64,000 nucleotides of DNA. Source: an uncultured Phycisphaera sp. (GTDB taxonomy: Bacteria; Planctomycetota; Phycisphaerae; UBA1845). The position numbers and the translations under genes were made by a program. The stretch is taken from contig CAZYEX010000053.1 in the NCBI GenBank assembly GCA_964646605.1, positions 14,929 to 78,928 of the forward strand, given 5' to 3'. Under the pieces are notes generated by a model that saw nothing but the letters and a program-made list of their open reading frames with translations, was not told where the DNA came from and did not search any database. This document shows, piece by piece, positions 34,721 to 38,206 of the stretch. The first letter of the stretch is position 1; each line of letters begins with the position of its first letter.

Positions 34721-35449
34721 TCAGGGGTCGAAGCGTAGGTAGTGGGCGGTTGCGGGGGGGAAATTGAGGAAGACGCTCTTGCGGGCGAAACGGTGGTCGC
34801 GGAGGTTTTGGGTGAGGAAGGCGTTGACGGCGCGGAGGCGCTCGCGTCGGCGGCCTAGGGCGAGGGCCCGCGAGGTTCGCCGCATCCCGAGGTACTCGAA
34901 GTAGCTGAAGACTCCGCCGGGCTTGAGGCATCGGCGGATGACGGCGAAAACGTCCTCCACGTCGCGGAGCTCGAACACCGTGAGCGGCAGCCCGGAGATG
35001 ATGAAATCGTATTTTTTCTCCGCGGGCAGCATTTGCACGGGCATGCGCAGCAATTGCACGCGTCCGCCGGCCATCAAGGGCGCGAACTCCGGGCGGGTCA
35101 GGACGTCGTGCTCGAGGATGTCGGCGAAGGAGTTTTCGATCTCGCAGATGTCGAACTCATCCTCGGGAGTCAGGACGGTGCCTAGGTAGCGAGTGATCGC
35201 CCCGGTCCCCGCCCCGACCTCGAGGATCGAAACGGGCCTGGGCGCTTTGCGGAGCGGTTCGGCGAGGGCCGCGGCGAGAGATCGCGAACTGGGACCGATG
35301 GCCCCGACGACGTTGGGGTTGCGAACGAAGCCGTGAAGAAAACGCCAGCGGTGCTGGAGCGCGGCGCGGAGCGGCCCGCGTGCCGATCCGTTCGTCCTGC
35401 ACGCGCCGTTGCCGTTTCCGTTAGCGGACGAAGTCAAGGTTGTTTGCAT
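34721..35449 (-). CDS. SAM-dependent lipid N-methyltransferase (PmtA/OlsG-like)
   Basis: VGAIGPSSRSLA, ILEVGAGTGAIT, YDFIISGLPL, LKPGGVFSYFEY. Confidence 0.85.
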   Translation of the reverse strand: MQTTLTSSANGNGNGACRTNGSARGPLRAALQHRWRFLHGFVRNPNVVGAIGPSSRSLAAALAEPLRKAPRPVSILEVGAGTGAITRYLGTVLTPEDEFDICEIENSFADILEHDVLTRPEFAPLMAGGRVQLLRMPVQMLPAEKKYDFIISGLPLTVFELRDVEDVFAVIRRCLKPGGVFSYFEYLGMRRTSRALALGRRRERLRAVNAFLTQNLRDHRFARKSVFLNFPPATAHYLRFDP

Positions 35450-35622
35450 CCTTAGAAACGATACCCATCCCCCGCCGCCGCGCCGCAGCCGGGGTCCGAC
35501 CGCGTTTATAGTACCAACCGGGCATCCGCGCGACTACCCCAAGTTCCTGTGGTTACAACAAAACACCGTCCCGCCGGCCCGCGAGACGATGGGGGATTTT
35601 TCTGGATTTTCCTCCTGGAGGC

Positions 35623-35631
35623 TGATAAACT
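35623..35631 (+). promoter_or_regulatory. Candidate extended -10 promoter
   Basis: TG-A-TAAACT upstream of the structured region. Confidence 0.35.
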
Positions 35632-35843
35632 GGAGGGTGCGGGGAATGGTGCGGAGGTTCAAGGGCCGGCAAAATCGGGCCGAAACCGGACACCGGACCA
35701 GCCTCGCTGCGTTCCGGCCGTGCAAACGGACGGTTCGCGCGGGCTCGCGGGTGGCGACCTGCGGGCAAGGACAGTCCGACGCTCCACGGAGGTTCCAACC
35801 CTCCCGCGCGTCGGGGGTCCCGTGCGTGAAAGGAGGTGGTTCG

Positions 35844-35873
35844 TTGGAATCAAAGATAGGTACGCTGCCGTAG
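35844..35873 (+). CDS. Putative 9-aa micropeptide MESKIGTLP
   Basis: TTG start 7 nt after AGGAGG, within GAAAGGAGGTG (11-nt anti-SD complement). Confidence 0.35.
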   Translation: MESKIGTLP

Positions 35874-35914
35874 GGCGGCAGACGCTGTTGCCCTAAAGGC
35901 AGCGTCCACAAGAA

Positions 35915-35953
35915 GGCCCGTTCCGGTTGCGACTGGAGCGGGCCGATTTTTTT
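35915..35953 (+). terminator. Rho-independent terminator
   Basis: GGCCCGTTCCGG-TTGCGA-CTGGAGCGGGCC followed by GA-T7. Confidence 0.75.
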
Positions 35954-35969
35954 GGTGCGAGGCGAGGAG

Positions 35970-36929
35970 TTAGCGCCGAACCCGCCGCGCGATTTCTTCG
36001 ACCCAATCCGGCGGCGCCATCATCGCGGCATCGGGCAATCGGGCGAGTTGGACGGACGGTCCCAGCGGACCCCATACCTGGGGATCGGTGGGTCCAAAGA
36101 GTGCCAATGTGTTGACCCCTGCGAGGGCGGCTAGGTGGGTCATCCCCGCGTCGCAGCCGATGAAGGCGTCGGCGCCGGCGACGAGGTCGGCGGCAGCCTC
36201 GACCGATGCTTCGTAGAGCACGGGGGCTACCGTTTCCCATCGGTGCGCGTAGTCCGGTCCGAAGCGCTCGACTTCGTCCGGGCCGATCATCCACGCCGAC
36301 GACCATCCGTCGCCGGTCAGCCTGTCCATCAACCTGAGCGCCGCGTCGAACGGACAACACTTCGCCAATCCGCCGCTGCCGGGGTGAACGAGGACGATGG
36401 AGCGATCCCCGCTGCGCAGGCGCTCCGCGAGGCGTGGGCGGAGCAACGAGCGATCCGATGATGACAGCGTGGAGGCACCGAGGATCGACGGATCCAATTC
36501 CAACCCCTGCGCTCGCAATTGTTCGAGCCATTGTCGGGTGATGTGTGTGCTCGTGGTGCAGCGCGGATCGACAGTCCAGACCTTTCCCCGACCCACGGCG
36601 GAGAGCTTGACGTTCGCAGGCGCGTCGGGACCGCCAAGAAAACTGAGGATTCCGTCGAACGAGCGGATGAATTCGGCGGTTGCGCTGGGCGCCTCCGCGG
36701 CCGCGGCATACAGGGTATGCGCGGCTAGGTCATCCAGCGAACGGGCCGAATCGATGATTCCATGGCGCGATGCCCAGCGGGCAATCGGCGACCTCGTCGC
36801 CATGGCCACGTGCCCCACACCCTCCTGGCGGCGCAGAGCCGTGGCGACGTGAATCGCAAAGACACAGTCTCCCAAGGCCCCATCGTGCAGAACGAGGATT
36901 CGCTGGAGGTGAACGGCGGTCCCGGTCAT
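35970..36929 (-). CDS. Glycosyltransferase family 9 (heptosyltransferase-like)
   Basis: LHDGALGDCV, VHPGSGGLAKC, FIGCDAGMTHLAA...ALFGPTDP..WGP. Confidence 0.9.
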   Translation of the reverse strand: MTGTAVHLQRILVLHDGALGDCVFAIHVATALRRQEGVGHVAMATRSPIARWASRHGIIDSARSLDDLAAHTLYAAAAEAPSATAEFIRSFDGILSFLGGPDAPANVKLSAVGRGKVWTVDPRCTTSTHITRQWLEQLRAQGLELDPSILGASTLSSSDRSLLRPRLAERLRSGDRSIVLVHPGSGGLAKCCPFDAALRLMDRLTGDGWSSAWMIGPDEVERFGPDYAHRWETVAPVLYEASVEAAADLVAGADAFIGCDAGMTHLAALAGVNTLALFGPTDPQVWGPLGPSVQLARLPDAAMMAPPDWVEEIARRVRR

Positions 36930-36935
36930 GGGGAC

Positions 36936-38066
36936 TTACGTAACATCATGTTGGCACACGGTTTCGGGGAGGTGCGCTTCCGCGTGTTCGATCCAGGCCC
37001 CGCCGAGGACCGTATCGCCGTCATAAAAGACGACGGCCTGACCCGGGGTAATGGCCCGCTGCGGTTCGTCGAACGAAACGCGAAACCGATCCTCGTCGAG
37101 GCGATGCACCTTGGCCGGGGCCGCGGAGTGGAGGTACCGAATCTTCACCTGCGCCGCGAACTCATCCCCTAGTCCCTGGACCAAGAAGTTGGCTCGCTTG
37201 GCAATCAACGCGGGGCACAACAAATCCGCGTCGTCGCCTAGAGTCACGCGATTCTGCACGACATCGAGCGAAGTAACGTACACCGGTTTGCCCGCGGCGA
37301 TGCCCAGCCCGCGGCGCTGCCCGACGGTGTAGTGTCCGATCCCCTGGTGCCGACCCATGACACGACCCGATGAATCGACCACCTCGCCCTCGTGGAATCC
37401 ATCCGGGCGGCGCTCGCGCACCACCCGTGCGTAATTGCGGTCGGGCACGAAGCAGATTTCCACCGAATCGGGCTTGTCATGATTGGGAAAGCCCATGTTC
37501 GCGGCGATGGCTCGGACCTCGGTCTTGGTCAGTCCGCCGATGGGGAAAAGAATGCGGCCTAGGCGCTGCCGCCGCAGCCCGAAGAGCACGTAGGACTGGT
37601 CCTTACGCGAATCGACGGCCCGCAGGAGCACGGGTTCGCCGTTGCGAAGTCCGGTCCGCGCGTAGTGCCCGGTAGCGACGAAACTGGCTCCGACCGCGTC
37701 GGCGTAATCGAACAACTTGCCGAATTTCAGGCGGTCGTTGCACACCACGCAGGGGTTGGGGGTGCGCCCGCGGGCGTATTCGTCGGCGAAATAGTCGATG
37801 ATGCCGTCGAATTCTTCCTGAAAGTTCAGAGCGTAGAGCGGAACGCCCAACATGCCCGCGACGAAGCGTGCGTCGGCGGCGTCCACGGCGCTGCAGCAAC
37901 CTTGATGACGGTGACCCGCGGCGGGTTGCACCGGCGCATCCGAGGCGCCCACGCGCATGAACAGGCCGATGACTTCGTAGCCTTGCTCGATGAGCAGATG
38001 GGCGGCGACGCTGGAATCCACGCCGCCGCTCATGGCCACCACGACTTTTTCCCGTGCCGCCGACAT
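36936..38066 (-). CDS. mnmA: tRNA-specific 2-thiouridylase MnmA
   Basis: VVVAMSGGVDSSVAA, GRTPNPCVVCN, ATGHYA, KDQSYVL, DSVEICF, YTVGQRRGLG, AITPGQAVVFY. Confidence 0.97.
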   Translation of the reverse strand: MSAAREKVVVAMSGGVDSSVAAHLLIEQGYEVIGLFMRVGASDAPVQPAAGHRHQGCCSAVDAADARFVAGMLGVPLYALNFQEEFDGIIDYFADEYARGRTPNPCVVCNDRLKFGKLFDYADAVGASFVATGHYARTGLRNGEPVLLRAVDSRKDQSYVLFGLRRQRLGRILFPIGGLTKTEVRAIAANMGFPNHDKPDSVEICFVPDRNYARVVRERRPDGFHEGEVVDSSGRVMGRHQGIGHYTVGQRRGLGIAAGKPVYVTSLDVVQNRVTLGDDADLLCPALIAKRANFLVQGLGDEFAAQVKIRYLHSAAPAKVHRLDEDRFRVSFDEPQRAITPGQAVVFYDGDTVLGGAWIEHAEAHLPETVCQHDVT

Positions 38067-38206
38067 GCGGGGCATCCTACCGAGGACCCGCGGATCGTCC
38101 AACGGGCTCGCCGCTGCCGGCGGTGGGCTCCACACGCTTCTTGGCGCGGGCGGCACTACCACGGGACATTCCCGGTTGGTAAACTGAGCGGGGAGGTGAA
38201 CGTCCG

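Follow-up and report, generated by a model that had tools for sequence, protein, structure and literature searches.

A stand-alone gene for a new family of abundant structured RNA with a putative ribosome-binding module in Phycisphaera-like Planctomycetota

The DNA analysed here is a 64,000-nucleotide stretch from an uncultured Phycisphaera sp. (contig CAZYEX010000053.1; hereafter the window). It contains a 520-nt gap (35450-35969) bounded by two minus-strand genes. On one side lies a class I S-adenosylmethionine methyltransferase gene (34721-35449), whose best named relatives, all of them weak, are ornithine-lipid and phospholipid N-methyltransferases. On the other is a GT9 heptosyltransferase-like gene (35970-36929), beyond which comes mnmA. 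An initial annotation, made from the sequence alone, had proposed a structured small RNA in this gap, and every sequence feature that it listed was found at its place. We report that the gap contains a gene, standing on its own, for a stable and highly expressed structured RNA of about 270-280 nt that represents a new family. It lies on the plus strand, and no same-strand gene follows it in the window, as had been noted, since its downstream neighbour is the convergent GT9 gene.

The RNA is transcribed on the plus strand from its own extended -10 promoter (35603-35631), which comprises a -35-like TGGATT (35603-08) and an extended -10 element, TGATAAACT (35623-31). The succession of TGGAWT, a 17-nt spacer and TGATAAACT was aligned and kept in most homologues. 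A strict sigma-70 consensus scan returned no promoter at the locus, and the assignment is therefore based on this conservation together with the 5' end seen in RNA sequencing (RNA-seq). That end, at 35639, lies 7 nt past the -10 box (TAAACT).

A search of public runs found the sequence in many sediment metatranscriptomes, and RNA-seq contigs with adapters at their ends delimit a mature stable RNA of about 279-281 nt (35639-35919, plus strand). In the size-fractionated RNA library X3, one contig corresponded to exactly 35639-35917 at a depth of 1986, with the Illumina adapter abutting position 35917. Library X9 gave a contig spanning 35650-35919 (depth 120) with adapters on both sides, library X10 one spanning 35647-35919 (depth 96), and libraries X4 and X5 covered portions of the 35639-35919 interval at a depth of 6-7. 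The flanking genes had a depth of 0, or of about 3 across a short stretch in X9. Adapter orientation was identical in four libraries, the read-2-side adapter following the plus strand, so that the first mate is antisense to it. As this is the orientation of the usual stranded protocols, it indicates a plus-strand RNA, in agreement with the promoter, the terminator and the strand-specific G-U pairs described below. The X3 contig also carried 26 extra nt (CCGGGCGGCTCTCCTGGCTCCGGCAG) before 35639, which are neither genomic nor adapter and are probably an assembly chimera.

Downstream, a terminator scan identified an intrinsic terminator (35915-35952, plus strand) made of a hairpin at 35915-44 and a U7 tract. 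Its helix (helix 12) is 83% paired among the homologues, with four pairs altered on both sides, and it possibly works in both directions, serving the convergent GT9 gene too. RNA-seq depth falls to 0 past 35919. Since the 3' end at 35917-19 is 3-5 nt inside the 5' strand of the terminator stem, the mature RNA (about 280 nt) is without the terminator hairpin. It finishes instead in an A-rich tail (35906-35919), which ends, adapters attached, 12-14 nt past the last conserved hairpin (hairpin E). In the homologue L020 a 3' adapter marks the equivalent end at position 2130, 13 nt past hairpin E. The primary transcript would thus end at the intrinsic terminator and then be trimmed back to about 13 nt past hairpin E. 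The transcript of about 300 nt that the initial annotation expected, and for which it had suggested RNA-seq, is therefore present at about 280 nt on the plus strand. Its view of a stand-alone RNA rather than a classic attenuator agrees with the conserved promoter, the terminator, the discrete abundant transcript and the almost uncovered flanks.

One further structure in the gap lies on the minus strand at 35564-35591, between the RNA promoter and the methyltransferase start and inside the presumed methyltransferase 5' leader. It is an 11-pair terminator-like hairpin followed by TTTTGTTGTA, and may be a structure of the methyltransferase mRNA leader or a chance occurrence (3 such sites in the scan against 1.2 expected). 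A low-coverage DNA contig of a related organism, spanning 35546-35688, has several indels around it.

Other very deep RNA contigs matched just 35811-35876, and these exposed a conserved core. A first metagenome pattern, TCGGGGGTCCCGTG..TGAAARG, gave 0 matches. A 19-mer from the core, TTGGAATCAAAGATAGGTA, matched 18 metagenome loci, and only two of these, L017 and L020 from JGI metagenomes, are true homologues. The other 16 (L010-L016, L018, L019, L021-L027) lie on AT-rich contigs that are mostly marine (TARA and similar) and unrelated to the RNA; most of them have near-identical flanks and look like one conserved locus. L020 carries, divergently upstream of the RNA, a methyltransferase 67% identical to the window protein. 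A protein search with the L020 methyltransferase led to further contigs with the RNA in the same slot (L028, L029, L030, L031, L032, L034 and L035), L017 being the same contig as L031. Together with the window and L020 these make up the nine-sequence set used throughout. The collection of homologues that had been proposed thus yielded eight further members from metagenomes and metagenome-assembled genomes, one of which, L029, is from a genome labelled Phycisphaera (assembly SBAX01).

The methyltransferase gene, encoding a candidate lipid N-methyltransferase, is divergent from the RNA in all nine loci. In six of the nine, rimO, encoding the uS12 methylthiotransferase (TIGR01125, 425 bits against a cut-off of 357), lies on the same strand about 120 nt past the terminator; no rimO was found in the 64-kb window or downstream of the RNA in L028 and L035. 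An RNA contig in library X20 (depth 5.7) skips 116 nt at L020 positions 2176-2293, from the terminator to the rimO start, and suggests a related genome with the spacer deleted. More distant relatives of the methyltransferase (56% identical; L040-L044) have an upstream gap of 185 nt with no RNA. Following the GT9 gene by genome scan and protein search was also negative: its nearest relatives (42-54% identical) have about 130 nt downstream, which leaves no room for the RNA. The mnmA-GT9 pair (window 36936-38162) is kept in relatives about 52% identical (L006-L009), where a convergent S9 peptidase gene stands in place of the RNA and methyltransferase, indicating local rearrangement. Plasmid, phage and viral collections contained no homologue of the RNA. 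A covariance model built from the five closest sequences (R1) found the window at 34.5 bits and L029 at 23.9 bits with filters off, its 5' half falling at 35639-35739. L028 and L035 did not rise above noise with this model, which was therefore not used for the final alignment.

Compared with shuffled sequences, plus-strand 35600-35960 folds with a z-score of -5.4 and the mature RNA with one of -4.85, whereas a broader minus-strand span (35450-35970) gives -1.4. We projected a consensus structure from a single member, L031, onto the nine-sequence alignment. It contains 97 pairs, and 81.3% of the cells are standard-paired, against 37-47% when the partners are slid by 1-3 columns. Both sides are altered in 28 pairs, and none of 500 column shuffles attained any of the observed measures. 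The covariation test that had been proposed is therefore positive, and the RNA folds into five hairpin domains, A to E. Each of the nine homologues, when folded individually, gives the same architecture. MAFFT misaligns the inner helices of domain A in divergent sequences, and there the per-sequence folds were used.

Domain A (35639-35707) is a long irregular hairpin closed by P1 (GCGGGG 35639-44 with CCUCGC 35702-07). P1 joins the 5' end of the RNA to nt 64-69 and covaries among the homologues (GCGGG/CUCGC, GUGAG/CUCGC, GCAAG/CUUGC, GCGAG/CUCGC), holding in all nine bar one terminal mismatch in L035. RNAalifold instead paired CUCG with the junction before hairpin C; this alternative breaks in L030 and L035 and was rejected in favour of P1. 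In all nine sequences domain A is a single extended hairpin with differing stem sequences and an identical loop, the 8-nt apical loop being AAAAUCGG at 35671-78 (conserved as GAAAAYCGG). Hairpin B (35708-35739) was likewise found in all nine; its helices 4 and 5 are 92% and 71% paired, with five pairs altered on both sides. Hairpin C (35743-35766) is the 10-bp hairpin that had been described there, and it is conserved, with 97.5% of cells paired and three pairs altered on both sides; its loop is GGCG in the window and GACG in most homologues. Two close RNA variants within it (35745 T>C and 35746 C>T) exchange G-U for G-C pairs and keep pairing on the plus strand only. Variants of the L020 type carry pair-preserving changes in hairpins B, C and D.

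Domain D (35769-35820) has a base of GGAC/GUCC, a middle helix (CCGACGC 35776-82 with GCGUCGG 35808-14) and a variable tip (35788-35804). The middle helix covaries, reading CCGGGCC/GGUUCGG in most homologues against CCGACGC/GCGUCGG in the window. The tip differs among subclades. The initial annotation had read this part of the RNA as a multibranch fold closed by CGCGCG (35736-41 with 35805-10), on which a GGAGG-TTCCAAC-CCTCC hairpin (35788-35804) would stack as in a transfer RNA (tRNA). That hairpin is real in the window, but it is merely the variable tip of domain D: it is retained as GGUUCCAACCCUC in L028 and partly in L029, replaced by unrelated tips in five homologues (e.g. GGGGCGAAAGACGCC) and absent in L035. 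The CGCGCG stem did not hold up. It is fully paired (6/6) in the window only and at most 3/6 paired in the eight homologues, and it clashes with both conserved hairpin B and the domain D helix 35776-82/35808-14. Since neither the stem nor the T-arm-like hairpin is conserved, we find no tRNA mimicry, and ARAGORN and the Rfam tRNA and transfer-messenger RNA (tmRNA) models were also negative. Separately, copies of (A)UGGG before hairpin C and before domain D, as well as CGGG in loop A, can each pair with an invariant CCCG(U) after D. These candidate partners (35736-35741, 35765-35772, 35819-35824) are all invariant in the nine sequences, and a pseudoknot is possible.

Between D and E runs a conserved linker of about 40 nt, in which the consensus fold has no pairing beyond a weak mini-hairpin. 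It has a fixed order: a variable purine-rich spacer, (G)GAGGUG(G/A)U(C/U)C, 1-2 bases and an invariant UUG. After the UUG come nine bases, GAAUCRAAG (UCUAGUCAU, of equal length, in L035), an invariant AUAGGU, two variable bases and an invariant GCUGCCGUAG that opens hairpin E. The strong Shine-Dalgarno (SD) sequence that had been remarked on, GAAAGGAGGTGG at 35828-39, is present, and the SD-like tract is kept in all nine homologues. In its extended form (GAAAGGAGGUGGUUC, 35828-35842) the tract is complementary to nearly the whole 3' tail of 16S ribosomal RNA (rRNA), for which we used the general sequence GGAUCACCUCCUUUCU and not one from these genomes. The predicted duplex with this tail has an energy of -26.2 kcal/mol in the window and of -22 to -29 kcal/mol, with 13-16 contiguous pairs, in all nine sequences. 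Of all predicted anti-SD sites on either strand of the 64 kb the tract is the strongest: the mean is -6.3 (sd 2.9), the tract has -26.2, and no site outside it does better than -21.4. The genes in the window, our survey suggests, seldom carry a strong SD. As a rough count in which starts were not curated, a strong SD lay upstream of 4 of 37 window genes at the longest start (background 4.7%), and any 4-nt SD core upstream of 10 of 37 (background 16.5%).

The UUG begins a putative mini open reading frame (mini-ORF; 35844-35873) with eight further sense codons and a UAG stop at 35871-73, which would encode MESKIGTLP. The UUG, the nine-codon length, AUAGGU, CUGCCG and the UAG are invariant in the nine homologues, and so is the spacing; 7 nt separate the SD from the UUG. 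In L035 codons 2-4 are rewritten (UCU AGU CAU) with length and frame unchanged. The mini-ORF is the tail of a 154-codon open frame (35409-35873). Neither this frame nor the long overlapping ones had a Pfam match, and a six-frame translation of the RNA region had no homologue among 5.8 billion proteins, which together exclude a hidden protein gene.

Hairpin E (35862-35905) includes in its 5' strand the last codons of the mini-ORF and its stop. The outer helix is 98% paired and invariant, and the inner helix is 78% paired. The initial annotation had envisaged a micropeptide-coupled switch here, in which a short hairpin over the stop codon alternates with a long one. Half of that idea is supported, as the SD, UUG, nine codons and UAG are kept in nine of nine sequences. 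The switch itself gains no support. Since the four segments repeat in the order a-a'-a-a', either fold can be drawn in each of the nine sequences, and it is the long hairpin alone that the variants keep. GG and CC insertions in the window are compensatory, pairing with each other only in the long hairpin, and L028 forms a perfect 15-bp long hairpin. In two independent RNA-seq variants CGGCAG has become CAGCAG, a change that disrupts the short hairpin over the stop and improves the long hairpin in its inner helix. When the nine sequences were read by eye, with no formal antiterminator search run, hairpin E showed no segment complementary to the terminator 5' strand, which likewise leaves the switch unsupported.

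Transcripts of the L020 type are very abundant. Their summed contig depth was 174,195 in the size-fractionated X3 and 77,340 in X20, spread over dozens of micro-variant contigs, against a depth of about 8 for the rimO gene adjoining the L020 RNA. In non-size-selected libraries (X9) the RNA was >100 times deeper than rimO. Sequences of this type also occur in sediment, groundwater, cave and subsurface metagenomes.

The family matches no known RNA that we could find, and we therefore rate its RNA class as new. At gathering thresholds, Rfam 15 had no match anywhere in the window, and a permissive scan of the gap gave only noise. No Rfam family matched any homologue at gathering thresholds, nor, where tried, at E values up to 10. 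ARAGORN found no tRNA or tmRNA in the window or at the homologue loci. Unlike in tmRNA, the 5' end pairs within domain A and not with the 3' end, and the mature RNA ends in ...AAGAAGGC(CC). The five independent hairpins supported by covariation are not the rod with a central bubble of 6S RNA, for which there was no Rfam match either. RNase P RNA and signal recognition particle (SRP) RNA models did not match the window, L020 or L029 even at E values up to 10, and neither an RNase P P4 motif nor an SRP domain IV motif was seen on reading the sequence. A literature search found no description of such an RNA. A 10-mer shared with the L1-stalk region of 23S rRNA was considered no more than chance would give and was dropped.

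We tentatively favour, at somewhat less than an even chance, an RNA that acts in trans by engaging ribosomes, either through translation of the mini-ORF or through stable docking of the 30S subunit. As judged from its sequence, the linker resembles a near-ideal translation-initiation region, with a purine-rich spacer, a 13-16-nt complement of the 16S tail, 7 nt and then UUG. With the UUG in the P site, about 20 mostly unpaired nt would fill the mRNA channel of the 30S subunit. The very stable hairpin E would then sit at the channel entrance, with the UAG following a CCG proline codon in its 5' strand. Pro-stop sequences terminate slowly in other systems. Docked ribosomes might thus initiate at and translate the mini-ORF, in which case release at Pro-UAG, against the hairpin, would probably be slow. 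Alternatively, the module might simply hold small subunits in place. Domains A-D would provide stability or a second binding function.

Several points weigh against this proposal. The link to the ribosome is inferred from sequence logic and a general 16S tail that is not taken from this genome, and it leaves the roles of domains A-D unexplained. Ensemble predictions make the SD tract only about half accessible, with a mean unpaired probability of 0.19-0.59, and that of the start codon is 0-0.35. The nine sequences show no change in the outer helix of E or at the base of D, so that these helices offer no covariation test, and invariance at third codon positions could reflect contact with RNA or protein instead of decoding. 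In two rRNA-depleted total-RNA libraries the RNA was merely 2-3 times deeper than its flanks, indicating that the extreme abundance comes in part from size selection.

A doubtful further proposal is that the RNA parks ribosomes or masks the anti-SD, occupying both the 16S tail and the mRNA channel in a lineage that seldom uses the SD. Here the 13-16-bp duplex with the 16S tail would lock one side, and the entrance hairpin with its Pro-UAG stop would lock the other.

It seems unlikely that the RNA is chiefly a small mRNA whose product would be a 9-residue peptide (M-x-S-x-I-G-x-L-P), its structure just stabilising the transcript. The ideal SD, the conserved UUG, the fixed nine codons and the stop in all nine sequences would suit such an mRNA, and the evidence for selection on the peptide, read from codon changes, is mixed. 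L035 retains Ser3 although it has switched to another family of serine codons (UCG to AGU), and the only common ORF variant among many RNA-seq variants, UCA to UCG, is synonymous. The same change, however, also preserves a pair (U-A to U-G) in helix 9, a small hairpin. Codon 7 can specify T, R, G or E, which are unlike residues, and changes also occur at codons 2 and 4. No position of codons 5-6 and 8-9 varies, and the last two sit in a helix, which fits constraint at the RNA level. A peptide of nine residues would be shorter than almost any free-standing bacterial peptide known to us, and about 200 nt of covarying upstream structure would be left without explanation.

We think it similarly improbable that the RNA sequesters a protein in the manner of CsrB/RsmZ or 6S/Ms1 RNA, with the SD-like tract and the invariant hairpins binding a regulator or an abundant protein and not ribosomes. 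Such a role would agree with an RNA that is very abundant, stable and processed. Loops of the GACG type in C, E and, in some homologues, B, together with the invariant base of E, suggest sequence-specific recognition. The SD tract and UUGGAAU each contain a GGA motif, and the distance between the two, 14-16 nt, suits a CsrA dimer. However, only two or three conserved GGA motifs exist, and they lie in the linker, not in the loops of A, C or E; L031 has no GGA in its SD core and L035 lacks the second site (UUGGAAU). The complementarity extends over the whole 16S tail, far past a GGA motif, while the invariant UUG and the fixed frame would not be needed, and the fold differs from the 6S rod.

Very unlikely, in our view, is a cis-acting leader or attenuator of rimO, in which the mini-ORF would be a leader peptide and the stable RNA a terminated leader. 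The same-strand rimO about 120 nt past the terminator in six of nine loci invites this reading, as does the order of short ORF, hairpins and terminator, which is like that of leader-peptide attenuators. It is disfavoured because the window, L028 and L035 have no downstream rimO and because the RNA vastly exceeds rimO in depth. In the window, where the next gene is convergent and no regulated same-strand gene follows, the RNA is nevertheless expressed and structurally constrained, and on reading the sequences we saw nothing that would pair as an antiterminator with the terminator 5' strand. A T-box had no Rfam match, and the downstream gene is rimO or none.

It is hardly credible that standard models have missed a tRNA-like RNA or one of the universal RNAs (tmRNA, RNase P RNA, SRP RNA or 6S RNA) here because of its divergence. 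The abundance and 3' processing of the RNA are like those of housekeeping RNAs, its T-loop-like hairpin and short ORF recall tmRNA, and a tRNA-Gly gene occupies the same slot in the more distant L038. Yet the models are silent in four homologues even at E values up to 10, and ARAGORN is negative. The two ends of the RNA are not paired together and it has no 3' CCA, the T-loop-like tip and acceptor-like stem are not conserved, and no P4 or domain IV motif was seen on reading the sequence. In L038 (the complete Phycisphaerales genome CP070744) that gene, tRNA-Gly(UCC) at 2136-2208 on the minus strand, fills the slot upstream of the orthologous methyltransferase, and about 100 bases beside it (2291-2393) are masked as N in the stored record.

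New abundant RNAs conserved across a lineage are rare, and tmRNA, 6S RNA, RNase P RNA and SRP RNA each serve a core machine. The present family, with its covarying structure, belongs to uncultivated Phycisphaerae-like Planctomycetota of sediment, groundwater, cave and subsurface, and its RNA dominates size-selected RNA pools from sediments. It carries a predicted ribosome-docking sequence of the greatest possible strength, and does so in a genome where such sequences otherwise seem rare. If the RNA does park or reprogram ribosomes, it would represent a new layer of global translation control, and the role of the anti-SD tail retained by SD-poor bacteria would become directly testable. Even if it should instead encode a 9-residue peptide or soak up a regulator, the RNA class would remain a new one, and its gene, ends, fold and neighbourhood are defined.

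Among known systems, tmRNA (SsrA) is comparable in being abundant, stable and processed, about 300 nt long, with a short frame ending in structure; action on the ribosome is, for the present RNA, a proposal. In tmRNA, however, the paired ends form a tRNA-like domain with CCA, there is neither SD nor start codon, and entry is at the A site, whereas the RNA described here has an SD and a UUG for ordinary initiation and no acceptor or CCA end. Like 6S and Ms1 RNA, which measure 180-300 nt and titrate RNA polymerase, it is lineage-wide, very abundant, processed and stable, but those RNAs are rods whose central bubble mimics an open promoter, and here there are five hairpins and an mRNA-like module.

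Dual-function small RNAs (RNAIII/hld, SgrS/SgrT, SR1) similarly combine a structured RNA with a small ORF that has its own ribosome-binding site, translation being putative in our case. Their ORFs encode 26-43 residues and they act by base-pairing seeds, in contrast to nine codons, an SD complementary to almost the whole 16S tail and no evident mRNA-targeting seed. The leader-peptide attenuators (the 9-codon leaders of cat-86 and cmlA, ermCL and tnaC) share a very short ORF whose 3' part enters a hairpin, and the tnaC peptide ends in Pro-stop, as does the mini-ORF. In these leaders the structure includes the ribosome-binding or Rho site of a downstream gene, which they control; the 3' strand of hairpin E has no ribosome-binding site, and the window has no downstream same-strand gene.

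Minigene RNAs have a layout comparable to that of the linker and hairpin E. The lambda bar minigenes, which have the same layout as the CreT RNA toxins, act by occupying the translation machinery and not through their peptide. The CreT toxins (PMC8501985) are reported to combine a strong SD and a start codon with a few codons, some of them rare, before a stop and a stable hairpin, and they too occupy the translation machinery rather than act via a peptide. The RNA described here has a strong SD, a start codon, a short ORF, a stop and a stable hairpin in common with both. CreT and bar RNAs differ in being toxic and restrained by CRISPR or Pth, whereas the present RNA is constitutively abundant and vertically conserved, has a large extra structured domain and stands in no CRISPR context. 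Were it to park ribosomes by masking the 16S tail, it would be the RNA-based counterpart of the protein-based anti-SD sequestration of Bacteroidetes.

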